Shown here one piece after another: positions 1 to 28,148 of a stretch of 40,813 bases of DNA; positions within the stretch are counted from its first letter, which is position 1, and each line of letters opens with the position of its first letter. This DNA comes from a virus. Its lineage: Duplodnaviria > Caudoviricetes. A model generated the notes under the pieces. That model worked only from the letters and a program-made list of their open reading frames with translations. It had not been told where the DNA came from and searched no databases. The DNA lies in IMG/VR virus record IMGVR_UViG_3300044267_003054, positions 1-40,813 of that record; one strand, 5' to 3'. The position numbers and the translations under genes were made by a program.

Positions 1-272
1 AATGGCGTGGGGGGGAGGGGCGGAGTACCTGCCAAGCTCAAGAGGGGGGTGGGGTCACCTGTCCGGGCCCAGACATAGTGGGCCTCAAGGGAGGGGCCAA
101 GCTCGGTCAGTCAGGTCGGTCGGTCATCTCGGCCAGGACATCTCGGTCATGTCTTCGCGCCCCATCCGATCAGGCTGCTGCTCGCTCCGCTCGCTATCGC
201 TCGGCGTTCCCGACTGGGCACGGTCAGGGGCCGGGACGGGATACCCCCCCCTGTCAACTGTCACCTGACAGG

Positions 273-773
273 CTACGCCCGGTCCAGGCTGGCAAGCTTC
301 AGGCGTAGCTCGGCCAGCACGTCTTCGCTTGAACGCTCAGAGCCCTCAGTGCTGACACGTTCAACGAACATGCTCGGCCCGTCGGTCATGCTGATGGAAC
401 CGAGGGCACGCAGCGCGGCCACGCGCCCGGCCTGGGTACTGTCGTCACGCAGGTCCGGGCTCGTTTCCTCCAGGAGCCGCTCACAGACGAGGTCGTATCG
501 CTTGGAGTGCGACAGGCGCTTCTGATCCCTCAGCCGGGCCAACTCGGTTTCTATTCTACCCGCGATCTCACCGTCATGCCTTAGCTCGTAGGCTCGGCTA
601 TGGATCGTCGGTGCGGACATGCGGGACGTGTTGTAGCAATGCTTGTAGGCTTCTGTCTGTGACTGGCCAGAGACGATCTGGTCAACGAAGCAGAGTTGTT
701 TACCAGTCAGGGTCTTCGACTTTGTCTTCGCCCCCTTGCCACCCTCTACCAGGGTTAGTTTGCTCTTGGTCAT
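273..773 (-). CDS. terS: Terminase small subunit
   Basis: LTGKQLCFVDQIVSGQSQTEAYKHCY HTH motif typical of TerS N-termini, followed by a helical oligomerisation region; start moved to ATG 773 (MTKSK), which has a GGAGA SD. Confidence 0.8.
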   Translation of the reverse strand: MTKSKLTLVEGGKGAKTKSKTLTGKQLCFVDQIVSGQSQTEAYKHCYNTSRMSAPTIHSRAYELRHDGEIAGRIETELARLRDQKRLSHSKRYDLVCERLLEETSPDLRDDSTQAGRVAALRALGSISMTDGPSMFVERVSTEGSERSSEDVLAELRLKLASLDRA

Positions 774-938
774 TCTGTATGGTCTCCGATGCAATATGCT
801 GTTCGCTTCGCTCACTGGACGCCGCGCCGCGCTGTAAGATTTCCGACCGGCGCACGTCTCAATATATGGCTGCACCCAGTCGGCACAAGAGACCTGAATG
901 GGCGTGTCCAGACACAGACATCAATGTGTCAAATAGGT

Positions 939-967
939 CTTGTGGTATACTTGACATTGTGTATTAT
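939..967 (+). promoter_or_regulatory. Candidate sigma70-type early promoter
   Basis: CTTGTG(939-944)-N17-TATTAT(962-967), with an overlapping perfect TTGACA at 951-956; predicted start near 974 coincides with the first leader hairpin. Confidence 0.45.
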
Positions 968-973
968 GTCCGT

Positions 974-1270
974 TCAGTCGTTGCTTCGTTAGCAGCGACT
1001 GAGGGGAGGCCCATGCCTCTCCGAAGACAGCGGAGACCACCGCTGCCCCCCGCTTCCAGGGTCCACACCTGGGAGAGCAGCAGGGCCCAAGTATCGCAGT
1101 GATGCGACACGGCAGGTCTGAAGGGAACCAACCTCCGAGCCAGCTAGTAGCTGCGCCGCCAGTAAGACACTGGCTCGGGTGATGGGTAACAACCCCGCCT
1201 CCGGCCACCGGAGTAAACTTCGACCTGCCGCCCAACCGGGTGATGGTCGACGGGCCCGAACGCTGGGGCC
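974..1270 (+). ncRNA. Putative structured non-coding/leader RNA, family not recognised
   Basis: No credible ORF; about 10 helices read by eye (974-985/991-1002, 1003-1010/1015-1022, 1028-1033/1040-1045, 1054-1060/1068-1074, 1094-1098/1103-1107 with GUGA loop, 1110-1123/1218-1230, 1135-1143/1170-1178, 1184-1187/1192-1195, 1199-1204/1208-1213, 1083-1088/1252-1257); G-U pairs favour a plus-strand RNA. Confidence 0.6.
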
Positions 1271-1271
1271 G

Positions 1272-1320
1272 AGCGGATCACTCCAGTCCGCTTTTCATTC
1301 ACCACCATAAGGAACATCAA
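1272..1320 (+). repeat. Intergenic hairpin-TTTCAYTYA-SD element, copy 1
   Basis: AGCGGA-9nt-TCCGCT TTTCATTCACCACCATAAGGA before ATG 1321 (most divergent copy). Confidence 0.7.
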
Positions 1321-2094
1321 ATGCTTCACACACAGACCACCCTTGATCACTACGCCGAGTTCACCAGTCGCGTGCAGGACGGTGCCCTGGTAGTCGTCAA
1401 CCACTCGGGCGGCAAAGACAGCCAAGCCATGTATGCCGTCATCAAGTCCCTAGTACCCGCCGACCAGATCGTTGTAGTGCACGCCGATCTCGGTGACGGT
1501 GTCGAGCACCTGGGCGTCCAGGATCACATCATCGACAACATTGAACACCCACTGCACATCGCGGAGCCAGTCTGGAAGGACGGCTCGGCCAAGACACTGC
1601 TTGACGCCATCGAACGCCGGGGCAAGTGGCCCAGTGCCGCGCAACGGTACTGCACCTCGGACCTCAAGCGGGGACCATGCGAAAAGGTCATTCGTCGACT
1701 GCTCCGCGAGAGCGGACGCCGGGATGTGATCTCCTGCTTCGGCTTCCGCGCCGAAGAGAGTGCATCCCGAGCCAAGCGGCCCACCTGGGCCAGGGTCGCA
1801 CGCAACTGCACCCAGTCGAGAGAATGGTTCGAGTTCTCACCCATCCATGATCTGACCACCGAAGAGGTCTTCAGGATCATCGCCCAGTCGGGTCAGCAGC
1901 CGCACCCAGTCTACGCCGAGGGGAACACGCGACTTAGCTGTGTGTTCTGCGTGCTCGCCTCCGACAACGACCTGCGGGTCGGGGCACGCCTTCGCCCGGA
2001 ACTGGCGGCTCGCTACGTCGCACTCGAAGACAAGATGGGCCACACGTTCCGAGCCAATCAAAGCCTGCGGGATATCATTGATATCCACGTCTAG
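1321..2094 (+). CDS. Phosphoadenosine-phosphosulfate (PAPS) reductase family / DndC-like PP-loop protein
   Basis: SGGKDS PP-loop, RYCTSDLKRGP, GFRAEES..R, PIHDLT, HPVY..G..RLSCVFC motifs; start at ATG 1321 with AAGGA SD. Confidence 0.85.
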   Translation: MLHTQTTLDHYAEFTSRVQDGALVVVNHSGGKDSQAMYAVIKSLVPADQIVVVHADLGDGVEHLGVQDHIIDNIEHPLHIAEPVWKDGSAKTLLDAIERRGKWPSAAQRYCTSDLKRGPCEKVIRRLLRESGRRDVISCFGFRAEESASRAKRPTWARVARNCTQSREWFEFSPIHDLTTEEVFRIIAQSGQQPHPVYAEGNTRLSCVFCVLASDNDLRVGARLRPELAARYVALEDKMGHTFRANQSLRDIIDIHV

Positions 2095-2098
2095 GCCT

Positions 2099-2142
2099 GG
2101 GGGGCACCGCCCCCCTTTTCATTCATCAACTGGAGAGCCGTC
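2099..2142 (+). repeat. Intergenic hairpin element, copy 2
   Basis: GGGGGGC-ACC-GCCCCCC TTTTCATTCATCAACTGGAGA. Confidence 0.9.
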
Positions 2143-2367
2143 ATGGACAGCAAGGAACTGCACCCAAACACGATACTGAGAATGCGACTGGACAACCTCG
2201 TCAACCTGGACATCCCCAAGGAACGCCGGGACATCGACAACCCCCGGAACGTCGACTGGTTGCTGCGTAACCTCCGCGCCAACAACGCTGACCACCCAGA
2301 CATCGACACGTCGATGGATGCCTTGCGTCAGCACGCTGCATGGAAGCGATCCATGTTCATGTTCTAA
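2143..2367 (+). CDS. Hypothetical phage protein (74 aa)
   Basis: GGAGA SD, flanked by repeat elements; DIPKERRD..N..WLLRNL..NN.DHP pattern resembles small marine phage proteins. Confidence 0.75.
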   Translation: MDSKELHPNTILRMRLDNLVNLDIPKERRDIDNPRNVDWLLRNLRANNADHPDIDTSMDALRQHAAWKRSMFMF

Positions 2368-2376
2368 AAAATCTAA

Positions 2377-2423
2377 GCGGGGGATGAACCCCGCCTTTCA
2401 CTCATCAACCTGGAGAAAACATC
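2377..2423 (+). repeat. Intergenic hairpin element, copy 3
   Basis: GCGGGG-GATGAA-CCCCGC CTTTCACTCATCAACCTGGAGA. Confidence 0.9.
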
Positions 2424-3485
2424 ATGTCTTCATTAAAGCACGCTATCGACACCCTCGTAGAAATCTACCCCACTATGATTGCCCAGCCGAAACGACTGGT
2501 GCCCATGCTGCTCGGTGCGCCGGGCCTCGGCAAATCCCAGGCGGTGTATCAGGCGGCAGAGATCATACGCGAGCAGAACAACATCGAACCCGAAGACTTC
2601 TCAGTCGTCGAGCTTCGCGCAGGCACCATGGACCCAGCCGAGATCGGCGGCTTCCGTTTCGTCATCGATGGCAAGACCGAAGTGACCGAGCCCGACTGGT
2701 ATCCGAAGACGCAGCACGGGCTGCTGTTCCTGGACGAACTTGCCCAGGCCTCTCTCGCAGGCATGAACGCTCTGTCAGAGGTCATGCTTGACCATCGGAT
2801 CGGCACCCGCAGCTTGCCCGCTGGGTGGATGGTCGTCAGTGCATCCAACCGCAAGCAGGACCGCGCTGGTACGAACAAAATCCCGTCGCATATCCAAGAC
2901 CGGATACTGCCTCTCGACATCACCCTGGATGTCGAGGCCTTGCAGGACTACGCCATCCGATCCAACTGGTACGATCTTGTGCCGGTGTACTGGAACTACC
3001 GCCCCGAGAACGTCCACAACTTGGGCGACGATGGCCGGGGTGCAACGCCTCGGTCCTGGGAGATGGTCAGCAACTTCAAACGTGCGGACCTATCGCCCCA
3101 GGTCGATCACACCATGGTGCTCTCTGCACTGGGCGAGGAGGTCGGCTCAGACTTCCTGGCCTTCGAGCGCACGGTCGACTTGCTGCCGGACATCGACGAC
3201 CTCATCAACGACCCCATGAATGCGAAGGTCGATCACAAGCCTGACATCATGTATGCGCTGATGGGTGCGCTCGCTACCAACATGGCCCGGCACCCGGCCA
3301 AGGTCGCAGGTGTCATCCAGTACCTGGACCGGATCGACCAGGAGTGGGCATTCACCTGCATCGCTGACGCTGAACGGTTCAACTCCGCAGCGCGGGAGAC
3401 GGACCCGACGGTCAAACAACTGGCCTCATCCAAGGCCTACACCGACTGGCTCATCAAACACAAAGACGTGTTTGTCGGAGCCTGA
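2424..3485 (+). CDS. MoxR/dynein-related AAA+ ATPase
   Basis: Walker A GAPGLGKS, Walker B LLFLDEL, sensor-1 SASNR, arginine finger region IQDR, sensor-2 ATPRSWE. Confidence 0.9.
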   Translation: MSSLKHAIDTLVEIYPTMIAQPKRLVPMLLGAPGLGKSQAVYQAAEIIREQNNIEPEDFSVVELRAGTMDPAEIGGFRFVIDGKTEVTEPDWYPKTQHGLLFLDELAQASLAGMNALSEVMLDHRIGTRSLPAGWMVVSASNRKQDRAGTNKIPSHIQDRILPLDITLDVEALQDYAIRSNWYDLVPVYWNYRPENVHNLGDDGRGATPRSWEMVSNFKRADLSPQVDHTMVLSALGEEVGSDFLAFERTVDLLPDIDDLINDPMNAKVDHKPDIMYALMGALATNMARHPAKVAGVIQYLDRIDQEWAFTCIADAERFNSAARETDPTVKQLASSKAYTDWLIKHKDVFVGA

Positions 3486-3487
3486 GT

Positions 3488-3535
3488 GCGGGGGCATAGC
3501 CCCCCGCCTTTCACTCACTCAACTGGAGAAAAAAA
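3488..3535 (+). repeat. Intergenic hairpin element, copy 4
   Basis: GCGGGGG-CATAGC-CCCCCGC CTTTCACTCACTCAACTGGAGA. Confidence 0.9.
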
Positions 3536-4468
3536 ATGACCAACCATGACATCATTGACGAGCACCTCCTTGAGGTATCGGTCACCATCAAGTCCTGGGG
3601 CGGCGTGAAGCGCGACCCCAAGCAGGAACGGAAAATTCGAGAGGCCTCGGGTGCCACCCGTAAGATCGGGCACTTCGACAAGTATCTGGTCTCGAAGGAA
3701 ACGCTGGCCACGATCAAGACTATCGACGGCGCATGGCGCAACCGCAACACCGAGTTGACCCTACCCTGGTCAGACACCACTCGGGTGGTGACAGTGGCAG
3801 GCTTCAAGAAGTGGGCCGAAGAGATGCGGAAATTCCAGGTCCGCAGGCAGGCAGCGGTCGACAAGTTCTGCGACAACTGGCCTCACCTTGTCGAGCAAGC
3901 CCGGCAGGAACTGAATGGCAGCTTCAACGAGAGCGACTACCCGTCGGCTAGTGAGGTGCGTGCTCGGTTCGTTGCCGAGGTCGACTACTTCGCAGTGCGC
4001 CGGGGCAAGCACCTATCCCAGTCGCAACTGGTCGGGCAGATCGGCGAGATGCTAAACGAACGTCAGGCCGAGGTCGAAGCGCGTGCGCAGCAGCGTGTCG
4101 CCGACGCCGTGGCCGAGGTCGTCAGCCGCATCAGGGAAAAGCTCGAACACTTCAGCGAGCGGATGCACGCCTATGCCGAGGTCCCTAACCCAGAGTATGG
4201 GACCAAGCCTCGGGCCAAGGAAACGATCAAGGTCGGGACCTTCAAGGAGAACACGGTCGCAGGCCTCCGTGACATGGTCGACGTGCTACCCAGTCTGAAC
4301 ATCTACAATGACCCTGGCATCGCCGAGGTTCTCGCTGACGTGGCCAAGCATTTGACTGGCAAGGGCACGCCCGAGGCCTACGCCCAACAGTTACGCGACG
4401 ATGATGCACTACGCGCCAAGGTCGCCAAGAAAACAGACAGCATTCTCTCGAAGATGAGTGCCTTCTAA
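3536..4468 (+). CDS. DUF3150-like helical phage protein
   Basis: V.I..W.G.K.D, K.L, TLPW.D, F..SDYPS..EVR.RF, LP.LNI.NDP motifs; sits between AAA and vWA genes as is usual for this family. Confidence 0.65.
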   Translation: MTNHDIIDEHLLEVSVTIKSWGGVKRDPKQERKIREASGATRKIGHFDKYLVSKETLATIKTIDGAWRNRNTELTLPWSDTTRVVTVAGFKKWAEEMRKFQVRRQAAVDKFCDNWPHLVEQARQELNGSFNESDYPSASEVRARFVAEVDYFAVRRGKHLSQSQLVGQIGEMLNERQAEVEARAQQRVADAVAEVVSRIREKLEHFSERMHAYAEVPNPEYGTKPRAKETIKVGTFKENTVAGLRDMVDVLPSLNIYNDPGIAEVLADVAKHLTGKGTPEAYAQQLRDDDALRAKVAKKTDSILSKMSAF

Positions 4469-4470
4469 AA

Positions 4471-4513
4471 GGGGGGATCAACCCCCCGTTTCACTTACCA
4501 ATCGGAGATCAAC
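4471..4513 (+). repeat. Intergenic hairpin element, copy 5
   Basis: GGGGGG-ATCAA-CCCCCC GTTTCACTTACCAATCGGAGA. Confidence 0.85.
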
Positions 4514-5761
4514 ATGGAACACATCGAACCACCAGTACAGTCAGCCAAGCGCCTCAGCAAGATACGCTCGCGCATGGCAATGGACGCTGCCTTCTTCGGC
4601 GGCATATGCATGAGGATGAAGGTCGTCTGGCTCCCCGCCGTCTCGACAGAGGTCGACACGATGGCGACCGATGGCAAGCACCTATTCATCAACGTCGGGT
4701 ACTTCGACAGCCTGACCGACGGTCAGGTCCGCTGGGTCCTGATCCATGAGGTCCTGCACGTCACCGATGGACACCATCTGCGGATGGGCAAGCGCGACCC
4801 CAAGCGTTGGAACATTGCCGCCGACTACGCCATCAACCCTATCGTTGTCGAGCAGTGCGGCAACGCCGACATGCCAGAGGGTGGCTTGCTCGACAGCAAG
4901 TATGCGGGCATGAGCACCGAGCAGATATATGGTGCGCTCAAAGATGAGGAGCAGCAGCCCCAGTCGGGTGACGACCAGTCGGGCGACGACCAGTCCGATG
5001 GCAACCAGGGTGACGACAACGCTCAGTCTGAGCAGTCACAGTCAGCCGATCCAGCAGGGTGCGGTGGCGTTATCGCACCGACCAACGATGATGGCTCGGC
5101 CCTCTCGGTCGACCAGATTGAGCAGGCTAAGACCGAGCTTGCTCAGACCATCGCGCAGGCTGCGCAGCAGGCTGAGAAGCGGGGCCAACTTCCAGGCTCC
5201 CTCAAAGAGCTTGTGAAGAATGCCCGGCAGGCGCAGGTCGACTGGAAGGAACGGCTCTGGGACAACGCCAAGGGCTCGACCATCACCGACTACACATGGC
5301 GCAGCCCGAACCGCAGGCGCTTGCAGGACGGCATCTACCTGCCATCCCTGCTGAAGGAAGGGGCAGGCGAGATCGTCATCGGCCTCGACACATCGGGCAG
5401 CGTGTCCCGTGACGCCTTCGAGCAGTTTGCTGGCGAGGTGCTGGCCATCTGCGAGGAGGTGCAACCCAGTGCACTGCACCTGCTGTACTGTGACACCGCC
5501 TTGCACCCCGAGAGCTACGAGCGTGAGGACCTTGATGATATCAAGATCGAACGCAAGGGGGGCGGGGGCACAAGCTTTGTGCCTGTCTTCGACTGGGTCG
5601 AGGACCGCATCGCCGACGGCGAGGACGCACCGCAGTGCCTCATCTACCTGACCGACGGCTACGGCAGCGAGCCCGAGTACGACCCGGATTACCCAGTCCT
5701 GTGGGTCTGCTGCTCGCCGAAGGAGATGCGGATCGGCGAGACGGTACGCATCAACGCCTGA
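4514..5761 (+). CDS. Metallopeptidase (HExxH) + vWA-like domain protein (DUF2201 family)
   Basis: TMATDG, HEVLH zincin motif, WNIAADYAIN, acidic QSGDD linker, MIDAS DTSGS, GGGGT.F.PVF, YLTDG. Confidence 0.9.
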   Translation: MEHIEPPVQSAKRLSKIRSRMAMDAAFFGGICMRMKVVWLPAVSTEVDTMATDGKHLFINVGYFDSLTDGQVRWVLIHEVLHVTDGHHLRMGKRDPKRWNIAADYAINPIVVEQCGNADMPEGGLLDSKYAGMSTEQIYGALKDEEQQPQSGDDQSGDDQSDGNQGDDNAQSEQSQSADPAGCGGVIAPTNDDGSALSVDQIEQAKTELAQTIAQAAQQAEKRGQLPGSLKELVKNARQAQVDWKERLWDNAKGSTITDYTWRSPNRRRLQDGIYLPSLLKEGAGEIVIGLDTSGSVSRDAFEQFAGEVLAICEEVQPSALHLLYCDTALHPESYEREDLDDIKIERKGGGGTSFVPVFDWVEDRIADGEDAPQCLIYLTDGYGSEPEYDPDYPVLWVCCSPKEMRIGETVRINA

Positions 5762-5764
5762 CCA

Positions 5765-5812
5765 GGGGGGGCACCGCCCCCCCTTTTCACTCACCATAAA
5801 TTGGAGGTCCAA
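5765..5812 (+). repeat. Intergenic hairpin element, copy 6
   Basis: GGGGGGGC-ACC-GCCCCCCC TTTTCACTCACCATAAATTGGAGG. Confidence 0.9.
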
Positions 5813-6004
5813 ATGATTATCATCCCAGCCGTTCTCGGATTATTCGTAGGCATCAGCATCACCACCATAGCAATAGTGTTTGTCATCGCTATCAATGCGG
5901 ACCCTGCGGTTGAGCGGGTGCGCAAACAGAACAAGCGCCGTGAAAAACTTTCCCGTGAGCGGGCCCGGCATCGTCAAGCAATGCGCCAGATCAGGAGCGC
6001 CTAA
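5813..6004 (+). CDS. Small single-pass membrane protein with basic tail (63 aa)
   Basis: ATG 5813 after GGAGG; hydrophobic N-terminal segment then Arg/Lys-rich C-terminus. Confidence 0.7.
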   Translation: MIIIPAVLGLFVGISITTIAIVFVIAINADPAVERVRKQNKRREKLSRERARHRQAMRQIRSA

Positions 6005-6005
6005 C

Positions 6006-6053
6006 CAGGGGGGGGCACCCCCCCTGCTTTCACTCACCATAATGGAGGTTACC
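6006..6053 (+). repeat. Intergenic hairpin element, copy 7
   Basis: CAGGGGGGG-GCA-CCCCCCCTG CTTTCACTCACCATAATGGAGG. Confidence 0.9.
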
Positions 6054-6434
6054 ATGAAACGTGCATACCTTAGAGCCGAAGGCATCGACTTTCGTGAATG
6101 GGCCGGGCAGTTTGTCCACCGGGATACCGAGGTTCGCTTCGACTACATCTTCAACCCCGAGTACATAGGCTACGAAGTCGGCCCCGACCATCCAAAAGAA
6201 TTGGTCCGACGAGACCTAGGCCCAATGGGCGAGGCATTCGTTCGCACCAACTGCGATGTGGGCTGCTTCCCTCATCGCGTCTGCGTCAACGACCCACACG
6301 GGTGGGCCTATCGCTACGCCCGAGTGCTGAAGACGGTGGCTCATGTCGTCATCGACGAGGACGAGTGTGGCCACCCAGTCATAGAGCGCTGGAAGATCAA
6401 GCGCCATACAAGCTTCGAGGTGGCACAAGACTAG
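6054..6434 (+). CDS. Hypothetical phage protein (126 aa)
   Basis: ATG 6054 after GGAGG; fills the interval between two repeat copies. Confidence 0.75.
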   Translation: MKRAYLRAEGIDFREWAGQFVHRDTEVRFDYIFNPEYIGYEVGPDHPKELVRRDLGPMGEAFVRTNCDVGCFPHRVCVNDPHGWAYRYARVLKTVAHVVIDEDECGHPVIERWKIKRHTSFEVAQD

Positions 6435-6478
6435 CGGGGCAACGCCCCGCCTTTCACTCACCAACTTGGAGATCGAAA
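6434..6478 (+). repeat. Intergenic hairpin element, copy 8
   Basis: GCGGGGC-AAC-GCCCCGC CTTTCACTCACCAACTTGGAGA. Confidence 0.9.
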
Positions 6479-6826
6479 ATGACAAGCATCAAAATGAAAA
6501 CGGTTCGCTTCAGAATGATCCGCACCGAAATGTGGGAACCCGAATGCCAAGTCCCCGCCCACATGAACGAGGACGAGGCAATGGAATATGCTACCGAGAA
6601 CTATTCCGACCCAATGTACGATGAGTACATGCACAAATATACTTACGACCAGGAGACGGAGTTATCTGTCATAGAACTGGACGTTCCCTTGGGCGAGCAG
6701 AAGGACTGCTCCCTGGTGCATGAGCCTAACGTCTTGCCTAACGGTGACACCTTCGAGCTTGGTGCTCCAGACGTTGAAGATGAGTATGGCGAGGACGGTT
6801 ATGGTGACGGTTTAGGGGAAAAATAG
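6479..6826 (+). CDS. Hypothetical acidic protein (115 aa)
   Basis: ATG 6479 after GGAGA; strongly D/E-rich. Confidence 0.7.
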   Translation: MTSIKMKTVRFRMIRTEMWEPECQVPAHMNEDEAMEYATENYSDPMYDEYMHKYTYDQETELSVIELDVPLGEQKDCSLVHEPNVLPNGDTFELGAPDVEDEYGEDGYGDGLGEK

Positions 6827-6829
6827 AAC

Positions 6830-6873
6830 GGGGGATAGCATCCCCCTTTTCACTCACAACTGGAGAGAAGATC
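6830..6873 (+). repeat. Intergenic hairpin element, copy 9
   Basis: GGGGGAT-AGC-ATCCCCC TTTTCACTCACAACTGGAGA. Confidence 0.9.
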
Positions 6874-7200
6874 ATGGATACCATCTTCAATAAGATCGAC
6901 CACTTCTTTACACACCAGTGTAATGATTACGATGAACTGGACGAGACGCAGCCCGAACACAAGGCATTGCTTGATGCAATAGACCTGCTTGTCGAAATCC
7001 AACAGTCGCCGCCTGCCTTCACGCCTTACCTCAAGCACGATGGTCTAACCAAGATGCACGGGTCGGGACCGAGGTCAGACATAACCGACACAATCTTTGA
7101 ACGCATGAACGGCGTCGAGTTGATGCCGGGCACTCGCATCAAGCGTGTCATGGGACGTGTATATTTGGAAGCGGAGAAGTGGGAGGATCGTAATGACTAA
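6874..7200 (+). CDS. Hypothetical protein (108 aa)
   Basis: GGAGA SD, open frame, coupled to next gene. Confidence 0.7.
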   Translation: MDTIFNKIDHFFTHQCNDYDELDETQPEHKALLDAIDLLVEIQQSPPAFTPYLKHDGLTKMHGSGPRSDITDTIFERMNGVELMPGTRIKRVMGRVYLEAEKWEDRND

Positions 7201-7906
7201 CGCACTCGAAAGGTACGGGGACATGGCCGACAAGTTGGGCATGAGCCACGAACAACCAGTCGGCATCTCCTATAAGTCCTATGTGAATAGGAGCAAGACG
7301 GAGGTGCCGTCGGTCACCGACCACCTACTCAACGAACTTATTAAAGGCTGGCTGAGTGGGAAGATGTCTGACCGTGTCGTCCGGTTCGAGGGGAGCGTGT
7401 ACGCCTTCCACGGTACACGCCTGTATGTGAACCCACGCTGGTCAAAGTGGCGCTACCGCAAACCGTTCGCGGTGGCTCGGGTTGATCGGAAGGACGGCGT
7501 ACTTGAGGCCTTTGGCAAGTACGCCCGATGGGCTGACGCAGCATTCCCGAACGACTGGGAGAAGATCCATTCTAGGATCAGACGCATTGCCCGGAACCAC
7601 TTCAACTCCGCAGATGCGAGCCCCTACGCTCTGCGTTCTCGCATGGATGTGTGCCCCGTCTACTCGCTGCACCAGGGTGCACGGCATAAGGCTAACCACG
7701 CTGCCAACGCCACCGCCTATGACGAATTGCTGCTGCTATTCAACAACAAGTTGAAGCGGGCGAAGCGTCACAAGAGGTTCCACCTCAACGCCTACACCAA
7801 GGTGCTTGAGGAGGCGAAAGAATATGAGGACATCCACGGGGTCGACCTCGGGATTATAATCCGAAAGGATTATGTCCTCGAAAGCTTCCGAAGAAAACTC
7901 AGCTAA
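7193..7906 (+). CDS. Hypothetical basic protein (237 aa)
   Basis: ATG 7193 after GGAGG, overlaps upstream stop (ATGACTAA); ends just before the terminator. Confidence 0.7.
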   Translation: MTNALERYGDMADKLGMSHEQPVGISYKSYVNRSKTEVPSVTDHLLNELIKGWLSGKMSDRVVRFEGSVYAFHGTRLYVNPRWSKWRYRKPFAVARVDRKDGVLEAFGKYARWADAAFPNDWEKIHSRIRRIARNHFNSADASPYALRSRMDVCPVYSLHQGARHKANHAANATAYDELLLLFNNKLKRAKRHKRFHLNAYTKVLEEAKEYEDIHGVDLGIIIRKDYVLESFRRKLS

Positions 7907-7912
7907 CTTGTA

Positions 7913-7957
7913 GCCCACTGTCCTCCCTCACGGGGGGATGGTGGGCGTCTTTTTTTT
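7913..7957 (+). terminator. Rho-independent terminator ending the early operon
   Basis: 15-bp stem GCCCACTGTCCTCCC-TCAC-GGGGGGATGGTGGGC (3 G-U pairs) followed by GTC and T8. Confidence 0.85.
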
Positions 7958-8025
7958 GCCTAGATTTCGCAGACCAATGATGTATTGTTGTGGTGCACAC
8001 GCGCCATAAAACTAGGAGACCATCG

Positions 8026-8217
8026 ATGGCCCAGCCCTTGATGCAACATGAACTGAAAAAGAAAACACGCCACATCCCCTTGCCCATTGAGATATGGGAC
8101 GAGATCGAAGACCGTATGCGAGTGTCGAAGCGCAGCTATGGTGCGGAGATAAGCTCCATGATTGAGCAACTGCTTAACCTGGAGAAACTAACCAGCGAGA
8201 CGCAAGCTCGTAGGTAG
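8026..8217 (+). CDS. Ribbon-helix-helix (Arc/CopG-like) DNA-binding protein
   Basis: AGGAGA SD; TRHIPLP strand, EIWDEIEDRMRVSKRS helix, GAEISSMIEQLL helix. Confidence 0.6.
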   Translation: MAQPLMQHELKKKTRHIPLPIEIWDEIEDRMRVSKRSYGAEISSMIEQLLNLEKLTSETQARR

Positions 8218-8721
8218 GGGGGGACGGACCATCTTGTCAGTGTAGTGGGTAAGGAGAGCGTCGAGCGCTTGGACTAACTGGTCCCTTTTATTTGGCGGCA
8301 GATGATTATCAATGGCCGCTGACACCAGCACCCGCTCGCACTCTCTGCCCGCTTCCCTGCGCACAGCACCCAGTGCATCAAGCACTTTGTGAAAACTGTT
8401 AAGCTGCCCAGTCGACGCAGCCCCTACACTCACTGACCCTGAGCGTTCATAGTTAGACCCGCTGGGCCCAAGCATTCGTGCTCGCCACATGATAGCACAA
8501 AAGCTTTCGGCTGCGCTGTGTTGCACATCACTGATGTGATTGTCTCTCAACATGCCATCGAAGGGTGTCGAGTCGAGACGCCGCAGCCTAACCTGAAAGG
8601 CTTTGGGGGATACAGGTTCGAGCCTGTACTCGCCATGCCTCAGCTTTTCTGGGGGGCCAAAGTCCGACGGACTAGATGTCCCACCCTTGCGTATCGTATT
8701 GCGCTTGCTGTTCTTGCTCAT
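8188..8721 (-). CDS. DUF6456-like putative transcription regulator/antiterminator
   Basis: DFGPPE motif, D.ML....I...QH.AA..F pattern, helical C-terminus with L..ALD.L..HY; located right after primase-helicase. Confidence 0.5.
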   Translation of the reverse strand: MSKNSKRNTIRKGGTSSPSDFGPPEKLRHGEYRLEPVSPKAFQVRLRRLDSTPFDGMLRDNHISDVQHSAAESFCAIMWRARMLGPSGSNYERSGSVSVGAASTGQLNSFHKVLDALGAVRREAGRECERVLVSAAIDNHLPPNKRDQLVQALDALLTHYTDKMVRPPLPTSLRLAG

Positions 8722-10465
8722 CGATGTAACAGCCTGTCGCCACGTCGAACCCGAGAGATGCTTCGCCTAATGCGCCGACCCATTTGTACCTCATCTTCCA
8801 GACGATGAACTTCACTGATACATCGTAGCCCCCATCGGGGTCAAGCTCACGGTGAACAGTCAGGCCGCAATCGCATTTGGAAAACCAGTGGGCCGACCCA
8901 GATATATCCATCCCCCTGGGGGCATGGACCTTGCCGTTCTCACGGGGGAGCTTGGTCGGGTGCGCCACAAAGAACACATGCAGATCGTGATGACGTGCAA
9001 ACAATCGCACCTTGGTAAGCATGTCCGAGATAGCCTCGGTCTCGCTTCGGGTCCCGCGCTTAATCTCCAGGTAGTTATACGGATCGATCACCAGTGCACG
9101 CACCCCGAGCCTTAACACCGCTGCCTGTGCCCGTTCAAGAATGCTATCGACAGAGCAGGGCTCGCCGTCGTTGTGGTCAACGAAAGCGAAGTGCTCGTTG
9201 ATAAATTCTTTGGCCTCGTTCAACTGGTCACGGGACATGCGTGGGGTCAGCCCCTCGAAGAACGGAAGCTTCAGATACTTCTCGGCCAGCTTTGCAATAT
9301 GCGTAGCGGGATCGTTCTCGAATGAGCACACACAAAACTTCCAGCCCTTGTCCCGTGCGAGGTTCATCATAATCGCATCGATCATCTCGCTCTTGCCTGA
9401 ACTGGGGATGCCAGTCACCACCGTAAGCTGGCCCGGCACCACGGAATACAAGCCGTCGAGGGAGGGAAAGCCTGTGCTCGCACCCTTGCCATGACCCTTT
9501 TCATACAGGTCCATCAGCTTATCTTCGTAGAACTTTACATCTCGCAACCCAGCGATAGGCCACGGCTGCGCTTTCTCTATGGCTCCGCGCACCGCATCCG
9601 CGCCAGCTTCCAGCAGGGTGTCGTTAGCATCCTTGCCGACTGGCCACTTGACAGTCCAGCACTTGACCTTACCCACTCGCCTTGCGAGTTCCTCTCCGAG
9701 AGCAGCGCCCTGCTCATCCATGTCCCCCGCAATAATAATCTTCTCGACGTTGGCCAACTGGTCGCGTGCTGACCACACATAGTTAAACTTGCGGTCCTCT
9801 TGCGGATCGATCTTACTGTCACTGAGTTTCATGGGTGCGCCATTCGGTACGCTGACAACGCAGGCTTCGGGCATGGCAGTCGCTATGCTAAGGGCATCGA
9901 TCTCGCCCTCGCAAACAATCAACTCTTTCTCGTCGGTTAAATCTTCAATGCCCCATAAGGTCTGGCATCCCCCAGTCCCCTCCTGGGTGTGCAGCTTCTC
10001 ATCCACCGCCCGATACTTGGACGCATAGATTTCTCCCTCGGAATTTTTGTAAGGGAACCCGATGCACGGAACTTCTTTATCAACCTTTCGGAAGAATTTT
10101 GTGGTGGAGAAAACGCCAAATCTTTTTAGCGCCTCTTCTGAAATGCCTCTGGATTTCAGGTAGTCCAGGTGGGTGTCGATAATGGGGTACGCACTCTTCG
10201 CAATCTCGACATCCTTTGTGGGCATGGGCTTTCGTCTTTCCATCTGAATAGGAGGACGGTCAGAGAATGCCCCCTTGTCTCCGCAATGGTGACAATGCCA
10301 GACGATGTGGTCGGCTTCAACCTTCACGCTAAGGCACGGGTCTTTCTGGTTCTGGCGCTTGCGGGTAGAGGAACAAGACGGGCATGTCGTCCTGACATTA
10401 TGGCCCACCTGCCGCTGCTTGCTACCTAATGAATTGAAAATTTCTTCTCCGACGTTGGCATACAT
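8672..10465 (-). CDS. T7 gp4/Twinkle-type DNA primase-helicase
   Basis: Zn finger CPSC...CHHC, TOPRIM CEGEIDALS / GDMDEQG / KDAND, SF4 helicase TGIPSSGKS, LVIDPY, VAHP.K, DISGSA. Confidence 0.95.
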   Translation of the reverse strand: MYANVGEEIFNSLGSKQRQVGHNVRTTCPSCSSTRKRQNQKDPCLSVKVEADHIVWHCHHCGDKGAFSDRPPIQMERRKPMPTKDVEIAKSAYPIIDTHLDYLKSRGISEEALKRFGVFSTTKFFRKVDKEVPCIGFPYKNSEGEIYASKYRAVDEKLHTQEGTGGCQTLWGIEDLTDEKELIVCEGEIDALSIATAMPEACVVSVPNGAPMKLSDSKIDPQEDRKFNYVWSARDQLANVEKIIIAGDMDEQGAALGEELARRVGKVKCWTVKWPVGKDANDTLLEAGADAVRGAIEKAQPWPIAGLRDVKFYEDKLMDLYEKGHGKGASTGFPSLDGLYSVVPGQLTVVTGIPSSGKSEMIDAIMMNLARDKGWKFCVCSFENDPATHIAKLAEKYLKLPFFEGLTPRMSRDQLNEAKEFINEHFAFVDHNDGEPCSVDSILERAQAAVLRLGVRALVIDPYNYLEIKRGTRSETEAISDMLTKVRLFARHHDLHVFFVAHPTKLPRENGKVHAPRGMDISGSAHWFSKCDCGLTVHRELDPDGGYDVSVKFIVWKMRYKWVGALGEASLGFDVATGCYIDEQEQQAQYDTQGWDI

Positions 10466-14921: not shown

Positions 14922-15130
14922 GCCGTGACTCTCATTACAGCGCCGGTGCCCTTGCGTGTAACACCGCACCCTCTACCAACAGACCCGCCCGCTTCTTTCT
15001 TCTTCTTCTTCCCACCGGGCTTGACCTTGCCACTACACACCGCGCTTGCGTACATATTGGCGTAAGCAGAAGGATACACATCAAACTTTCGTTTGGCAGC
15101 AGCCTTTCCTTTGGCGCATAGTTTTGCCAT
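14918..15130 (-). CDS. Small basic conserved phage protein (70 aa)
   Basis: K.KF.VYPSAYAN motif, GG..GRGCG. Confidence 0.75.
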   Translation of the reverse strand: MAKLCAKGKAAAKRKFDVYPSAYANMYASAVCSGKVKPGGKKKKKEAGGSVGRGCGVTRKGTGAVMRVTA

Positions 15131-15136
15131 ATCACT

Positions 15137-15385
15137 CTACCATTTCTTACAGGACCAGTATCGCGCACTGAGTTTGCTGGGTGGCCTGCTATCACACCCA
15201 TGCCGCGCTCGAAAACTTTTCCTTCTCTTAGGCTGGTCCTTCTTGATCTTCATATTCGGATCACCAAACCGGATCAGCTTTACTTCCTTCCCTTGCTTTG
15301 CGAGCACAGCGAACTTCTTCTTCTTGCCCGGTGTGCGCTTGGGTTTGTTATACCCGCTGAACTTCTCGCCACGATAATCAATCAT
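15137..15385 (-). CDS. Small basic conserved viral protein (82 aa)
   Basis: KKF.V, K.IRFGD, RRKSFRARH.C, SA.YWS...W; start MIDY coupled by ATGA. Confidence 0.75.
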   Translation of the reverse strand: MIDYRGEKFSGYNKPKRTPGKKKKFAVLAKQGKEVKLIRFGDPNMKIKKDQPKRRKSFRARHGCDSRPPSKLSARYWSCKKW

Positions 15386-15861
15386 TTCTTTTTGTCCTGT
15401 TGCCATGCCCGTGCCTTGGACATGGCCCTGTTCCCAAACCAGAAACTAATGATAGCACTAAATATAACGCCGTCGGTTTCCTCACGCCACGCCATGTCTA
15501 TGGCTACCGTCCAGTCTAAATTCTGCACGGCAATCATGGCGTAGATCATCGCCCCCTTTGTCGAGAGGTAGGCGAGGACGAACATGTAAGTGAGAACAGG
15601 ACGGACAGAACCGCGAAGGCCGTTGATAAATCCGCCAGCATCGATAGATTGGTCATGCTCATATAGTCCTTTCGTCTCTTCGATCTCGGCCTGGGCATCT
15701 AACTCTGCCAGCTTCAGCTTCGACATCTGATCGGCATACTTTGCCTTGGCTTCCAGCATCTTCAACTGGTGTGCGTCTGCCTGCTTCTGCTTAAAAATTC
15801 CTATGACTTCAGGGATAATGGAAGTGCCGAACCCGAGAAGGCTACCCAGTAAAGATATCAT
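15382..15861 (-). CDS. Holin-like membrane protein (3TM/GTA-holin type)
   Basis: N-terminal amphipathic segment, coiled coil, SVRP.LTY TM, IISFWFG.R C-terminal signature. Confidence 0.65.
   Translation of the reverse strand: MISLLGSLLGFGTSIIPEVIGIFKQKQADAHQLKMLEAKAKYADQMSKLKLAELDAQAEIEETKGLYEHDQSIDAGGFINGLRGSVRPVLTYMFVLAYLSTKGAMIYAMIAVQNLDWTVAIDMAWREETDGVIFSAIISFWFGNRAMSKARAWQQDKKK

Positions 15862-18155: not shown

Positions 18156-18156
<1 letters not shown>
17710..18156 (-). CDS. Endolysin, peptidase M15A family
   Basis: LS.YFSL.E...S.TA.R.GIDN.P, SSGFRS, SQH..GEAAD, FDQLI.E, WVH.S. Confidence 0.9.

Positions 18157-28148
<9,992 letters not shown>

Follow-up and report, generated by a model that had tools for sequence, protein, structure and literature searches.

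A string of conserved RNA hairpins behind the putative early promoter of a small clade of uncultured phages

The RNA that most resembles the element described here comes from cluster A mycobacteriophages, where an abundant, stable and processed non-coding RNA of about 500 nt lies right behind the early promoter Pleft (PMC5712189). As far as the available part of that report goes, the Pleft RNA has no canonical terminator, can be deleted in part and is toxic to the host. A second point of reference is put of phage HK022, an RNA of about 70 nt with two stems, which binds the zinc-binding domain of the beta-prime subunit of RNA polymerase and suppresses termination over 10 kb in operons with internal terminators (PMC9378689, available part). 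Candidate ncRNAs derived from 5′-UTRs were observed as transcripts in virulent Pseudomonas phages; they are conserved within a genus and mostly end by premature termination (PMC10914365, available part). GOLLD and ROOL are phage-associated non-coding RNAs of unknown function with about 580-800 nt, multistem junctions and pseudoknots, and lie near tRNAs (PMC5737381, available part). The ncRNA of the UG27 reverse transcriptase (RT) forms an array of units of about 150 nt with an adjacent RT gene (10.64898/2026.09.22.753630, available part).

In this study we analysed a 40.8-kb virus record of an uncultured marine phage with an estimated completeness of 67%; this whole stretch of DNA is called the window. 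The element at 974-1270 of its plus strand can be compared most closely with the Pleft RNA of phages L5, D29 and StarStuff. Both occupy an ORF-free region of several hundred nucleotides between the (here putative) early promoter and the first early gene, and, to the extent covered by the available part of PMC5712189, both have a 3′ end without a canonical terminator, are prone to insertions and deletions and include a dispensable part. Abundance, processing and toxicity have been shown for the Pleft RNA; our element belongs to another phage group, and the two are likened by description. A covarying hairpin architecture is shown for the element, unlike for the Pleft RNA in that source. By this analogy, the element would work most like the Pleft RNA. 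Like put, it is a phage structured RNA encoded in cis just behind a putative early promoter that would be read by the host polymerase. Compared by description, it has about 300 nt and nine or more hairpins, H1 and H2 spanning about 50 nt, and its relatives are devoid of the internal U-tract terminators which put serves to overcome. With the Pseudomonas phage ncRNAs it would share a place at the structured 5′ end of a transcript, whereas no conserved terminator belongs to it. GOLLD and ROOL are about twice its size, and no tRNA is found near the element.

Searches with the terS and ATPase genes led to three contigs identical to the window at this locus and three diverged ones, L008, L009 and L010, which carry the element in the same slot, divergent from terS. 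A metagenome scan gave 59 matches, of which five were true loci, one being a new variant (L033). Five sequence types were obtained in all, the window element having four diverged relatives. For relatives, full-length contigs of 54-63 kb exist. Pattern scans of IMG/VR returned the same six contigs (6 of 7, 6 of 22 and 6 of 6 matches); the seventh match of one scan is a chance hit inside a coding region. A blastn search with the element found no match among 50,697 phage records. Among the GTDB genomes one pattern scan had no match, and the 29 matches of another reached at most 23 bits with the 5′ model, compared with 69-99 bits for true members, and gave no hit with the 3′ model. The nearest cultured phages are distant (MinM2/Pag-Yong1, DSL-LC04, HTVC023P and CRP-901/902, 30-39% protein identity), and a search of MinM2, DSL-LC04, CRP-901 and two IMG/VR records had a best E value of 0.4, with the 3′ model. 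L080 was rejected as a relative, as it is an unrelated phage.

MinM2 (L084, OQ594354) has an unannotated gap of 1.1 kb (19473-20563) ahead of its early operon. The last 300 nt of this gap fold with a z-score of -4.7, the rest folds no better than shuffles, and no Rfam match was found in the region. This long non-coding stretch lies in a comparable slot and was rejected as a homologue: no homology to the element is detectable, and the divergent ORF of MinM2 does not align with the window terS. The early genes of MinM2 also share a repeated intergenic motif.

A preliminary description of this DNA had regarded 974-1270 as an unrecognised structured non-coding stretch that folds almost completely, holds no credible ORF and cannot be assigned to tRNA, tmRNA or a known RNA family. 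These points are borne out. The plus strand has a minimum free energy (MFE) of -151 kcal/mol, compared with -118.7 ± 5.9 kcal/mol for shuffled sequences (z -5.48; none of 200 shuffles as good), and every helix listed in that description exists at its given coordinates and in the MFE fold. When other 297-nt samples of the window were folded on both strands with ten shuffles each, 1 of 41 had a z-score below -4; it lies at 15101-15397 (+), where plus- and minus-strand ORFs meet. No reading frame is open across all five sequence types. The covariance models of Rfam 15, including riboswitches, ribozymes, tmRNA, RNase P, SRP, 6S, GOLLD, ROOL, raiA and OLE, gave no match at gathering score in the window, and ARAGORN found no tRNA or tmRNA gene in any of the five loci. 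A search for antisense targets within the window ended at a longest complement of 12 nt (two matches; none at 13). An expression search listed no RNA run with this stretch, and nothing from three RNA runs aligned to it, which speaks neither for nor against transcription. The element is not described in the openly accessible literature that we searched. Motif searches of the text and tables of the largest phage RNA catalogue (Fremin 2023, PMC10690425), as far as available, found nothing; its table mmc6 has no sequence column, and a fragment of the element's RNA may be listed in the alignments of that catalogue. Conservation in relatives also supports a location behind a likely early promoter and ahead of the first early gene. 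Folding and comparison together indicate that the element is a real and undescribed structured RNA family, and a narrow one, as it belongs to one small clade of uncultured phages.

Table 1. Features in and around the element (positions in the window)
Feature	Position	Strand	Remarks
terS, terminase small subunit gene	273..773	-	PHROG 1595 and 51, E 3e-8 and 8e-8
Putative early promoter region	939..967	+	CTTGT 939-943, TTGACA 951-956, -10-like TATTAT 962-967; conserved in alignment
H1, 5′-terminal hairpin at predicted transcription start	974..1002	+	starts 6 nt after the conserved YATTAT hexamer in 6/6 loci
H2, hairpin with GC-CCAU-GC cap	1003..1022	+	cap invariant in 5/5 types; lower stems differ yet pair
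H3, hairpin	1028..1045	+	A-U/G-C change at base; contig variants in loop; diverged in L010
H4, hairpin, then invariant GAGCAG	1053..1080	+	among the best supported; different in L010
Variable middle	1081..1197	+	93-149 nt long among relatives; holds GUGA hairpin (1094-1107) and small hairpins at 1141-1153, 1158-1174, 1184-1195
3′ module: Ha (1199-1213), linker UAAACUU, Hb (1221-1249), CGGGC	1198..1255	+	conserved, 49-52/58 nt identical to the window in L008, L009 and L010
Hc, 3′ hairpin	1253..1270	+	local hairpin, differing pairs in all five types; L009 one alignment column out of register
Intercistronic cassette: hairpin, U/A-rich ATTCAC/ACTCAC tract, ribosome-binding site	1271..1320	+	repeated in operon
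PAPS-reductase-domain gene, first early gene in window	1321..2094	+	PF01507
Strong intrinsic terminator ending early operon	7913..7960	+	15-bp stem and T-run; kept in L008

The architecture differs from the one first proposed, in which a large nested domain was closed by the helices 1045-1049/1265-1269 and 1083-1088/1252-1257. In the consensus fold of four sequences these helices give way, and the element becomes a chain of local hairpins (Table 1). One of the best supported, 1053-1075, was missing from the original list. Covariation in homologues, the check proposed at that time, has given a mixed result: pair-preserving changes occur in the local hairpins, but the shuffle control is weak, since the same score is attained by 17 of 500 shuffles and is inflated by relatedness. 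In H1, the pair 984-992 appears as C-G, U-G or U-A, 981-995 as U-G or U-A and 974-1002 as U-A or C-G, whereas 976-1000 is an A.C mismatch in two of the five types. An X1 contig shows three changes in H4 (U-G to C-G, C-G to U-A and A-U to G-C), and one H4 pair is G-C in L009 and A.C in L008. Within the middle hairpins, one contig changed 1144-1150 from C-G to U-A and 1163-1169 from U-A to U-G. Hb varies at 1232-1239 (C-G/G-C), 1230-1241 (G-U/G-C) and 1227-1244 (G-U/A-U), and the closing pair of Ha is turned from G-C to C-G in one depth-2 contig; 14 of the 17 pairs that make up Ha and Hb are the same throughout. In the consensus fold, the ribosome-binding site is unpaired except for one helix with upstream promoter DNA.

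Sequence conservation is concentrated at both ends. Compared with the window, 80-85 of 101-104 aligned nucleotides of the 5′ module are identical in L008, L009 and L010. Both modules are 77-90% identical, compared with 40-52% at fourfold-degenerate sites of the terS, ATPase and PAPS genes. The middle is mosaic in nature. L010 has the GUGA hairpin and one segment in common with the window, and a different segment in common with L008 and L009. Even the near-identical relative L033 is devoid of the GUGA hairpin, which occurs in 2 of 6 loci, and of the 5′ arm of a 13-bp stem discussed below. The middles look chimeric, and the high identity of the modules could come in part from recombination among co-occurring phages.

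The promoter region upstream of the element is conserved, and within IMG/VR its motif is confined to the six contigs that carry the element. We infer an early-promoter function for it from this conservation; it is not a canonical sigma-70 promoter, and a sigma-70 scan of positions 1-9000 called none. A perfect TTGACA is kept in all homologues; it lies 5 nt before the -10-like hexamer and 11 nt behind a TTGT, and may serve a regulator instead of being a -35 box.

The terS gene has an equal position in L008, L009 and L010. The plus-strand operon beyond it encodes, in the window, a PAPS-reductase-domain protein, a MoxR-like ATPase and a DUF2201 protein, and is followed by a primase-helicase and then by podovirus-type virion genes. 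One virion protein has 3330 aa (18156-28148, minus strand), LPD38 and L5 gp82-like domains and an HExxH motif near residue 829; it has no solved-structure match. GCTCGCT/CGCTC repeats are conserved on both sides of terS (window 180-205 and 804-817; L008 627-643 and 1267; L010 837-853 and 1527) and are candidate terminase or packaging recognition sites. The terS frame on the minus strand is open far upstream in L008 (733-1629, into the element) and in L010 (972-1670) and closed in the window; the long frame is probably chance read-through. The window and one other assembly end at most 24 nt apart, close to non-coding, G-rich DNA that lies downstream of terS (window 1-60; L006, L082). L082 and L008 continue past this point, which marks the end of the genome or else a break in the assembly.

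Early genes have a cassette in front of them, composed of a GC hairpin, an ACTCAC-type tract and a ribosome-binding site (GGAG), and one such cassette also closes the element. Eight cassettes were listed in the window, 9-10 in L008, six in L009 and four in L010; two listed rows are not cassettes, and a further one lies at 2375-2423 of the window. The cassettes (2088-6870 in the window) are homogenised within each genome, with TTTC after the hairpins of the window and TAAA-type tracts in L008, L009 and L010. Early gene content between the cassettes varies, which suggests that they mediate its shuffling. In their variable gene content among relatives, the cassettes resemble the PeSLs of T4-type phages (PMC2839356, available part). 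A PeSL contains a promoter and a terminator, in contrast to the hairpin, A/U tract and ribosome-binding site of our cassettes, and this comparison concerns the cassette, not the 300-nt element. The gene directly downstream of the element differs among relatives: the PAPS-reductase gene is first in the window, second in L009 and L010, and not seen between element and ATPase in L008. Because of this change, the element is not tied to one gene.

Our preferred explanation, held tentatively with a probability of about 0.4, is that the element is the 5′-most, non-coding cistron of the early operon and accumulates as a stable, protein-binding RNA of 270-370 nt. Host RNA polymerase would transcribe it from about position 974 as the head of the operon, probably as the earliest RNA of the infection. 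H1 would protect the 5′ end of the RNA, and the 3′ end would arise by cleavage or by trimming as far as the cassette hairpin. The invariant parts, namely the CCAU cap, GAGCAG and Ha-UAAACUU-Hb, would be recognised by a protein, and the RNA would likely act while the host is being taken over, by binding a protein of host or phage origin. Here, the middle would be free to change while both ends stay fixed for recognition.

The foremost alternative, though an unlikely one, is a cis-acting RNA similar to put, which would modify the elongating host polymerase so that it reads the early operon of about 7 kb across pauses and terminators, mainly Rho-dependent ones. The promoter-proximal site and the tandem hairpins at the extreme 5′ end fit this idea. 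No RNA polymerase gene was found in the window, from which about a third of the genome is missing, and the intercistronic hairpins of the window, with short runs of 3-4 U, score as terminator-like. In L008, L009 and L010, TAAA-type tracts take the place of these U-runs, so that the hairpins are not conserved terminators; the three relatives keep the element and yet have no internal intrinsic terminators to override. The strong terminator that closes the operon is conserved and lies about 6.6 kb downstream, inside the 10-kb range of put suppression (PMC9378689, available part). Unlike the small two-stem put, the element is best conserved at its 3′ end. These features of the cassettes, the end terminator and the first genes weaken a put-like antiterminator and disfavour a gene-specific riboswitch.

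Distinctly unlikely, and ranked behind the put-like RNA, is a 5′ leader that acts in cis, either as an mRNA stabiliser or as an attenuator which switches between Hb and the long stem 1110-1123/1218-1230, possibly through a phage protein. This 13-bp stem was a main feature of the preliminary description. It exists in the window with a 9-bp core, where it is favoured over the conserved local fold by 1.4 kcal/mol; the other five of six loci offer equivalents of only 5-6 bp. When Ha and Hb are imposed on the fold, the penalty is 0-1.4 kcal/mol in four types, compared with 5.9 kcal/mol in L010. In two window-type contigs a change at 1217 lengthens the long stem by one G-C pair, and for this reason the stem may form in the window's own sub-lineage. 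The linker can pair with some segment of the middle in all five types, but in all ten tests pairing of the middle with the 3′ module stayed at the level seen with shuffled middles (p 0.06-0.27 for the linker and 0.14-0.88 when Hb was included). No conserved terminator or helix occluding the ribosome-binding site accompanies the varying downstream gene. Competing folds of 1135-1178 had earlier been taken to indicate switching; as a conserved feature this is not supported, since the segment has no counterpart in L008 and L009.

We consider it improbable that the element acts at the level of DNA or of the minus strand, as single-stranded hairpins for replication or packaging near terS or as the leader of a late transcript into terS. 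The element adjoins terS, and the minus strand also folds well (z -3.90) and outfolds the plus strand in three of four relatives; the original argument for the plus strand, drawn from G-U mismatches, is not confirmed. Several of the A.C mismatches in H1, H2 and H4 of some relatives become G-U on the minus strand. On the other hand, G-U positions outnumber A.C ones by about 7 to 3 in a hand count, the GNRA-type loop sits on the plus strand, and in 6 of 6 loci the 5′ edge falls on the plus-strand start that YATTAT predicts. Internal loops and wobbles are also ill-suited to a double-stranded cruciform. Most likely, the element is a plus-strand RNA.

Least probable is that the element forms the conserved core of a larger RNA fold that has a chemistry of its own, whether as a ribozyme, a ligand sensor or an ornate scaffold, and that its middle corresponds to variable peripheral domains: the length fits, and invariant single-stranded end motifs could pair over a long range, as the CCAU cap with AUGG at 1243-1246, but no long-range pair is backed by covariation, the consensus is a string of local hairpins, and a relaxed Rfam search gave only two chance matches (E 2.3 and 8).

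Several specific candidates were rejected. An HDV-like double pseudoknot failed in a by-eye trial on P3/L3 length and J4/2, which we take to be features of that family. For a riboswitch, the element offers neither a conserved expression platform nor a constant class of downstream gene, and its alternative pairings are at chance level; a sulfur riboswitch for the PAPS gene was dismissed because this gene moves or is missing in relatives. A retron or UG27-like RT-linked ncRNA does not fit a single-copy element in a record with no RT among the 32 window proteins scanned (about a third of the genome is missing from the window). For an N4-type virion polymerase with hairpin promoters, the 3330-aa protein provided no structural match and none of the motifs, presumably diagnostic, in convincing form.

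A bolder idea goes beyond the preferred non-coding early cistron. The element might represent a new class of RNA effectors, modular hairpin scaffolds with fixed ends and an exchangeable middle that would be the initial transcript of infection and would bind and disarm host proteins before any phage protein is made; we regard this as doubtful, ranking it below the leader alternative and above a DNA-level role. Here, the middle would be shuffled between phages like accessory genes, and the targets would be defence sensors, RNA-binding regulators or RNA polymerase. The reach of our findings is limited, since the element occurs in a single small group of uncultured phages. The roles of early non-coding RNAs in phages are poorly understood, and the Pleft RNA, as the best-studied case, is without a structural model. 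With an architecture backed by covariation, invariant ends and natural variants in which the middle is deleted or swapped, the element is directly testable as a synthesised RNA.
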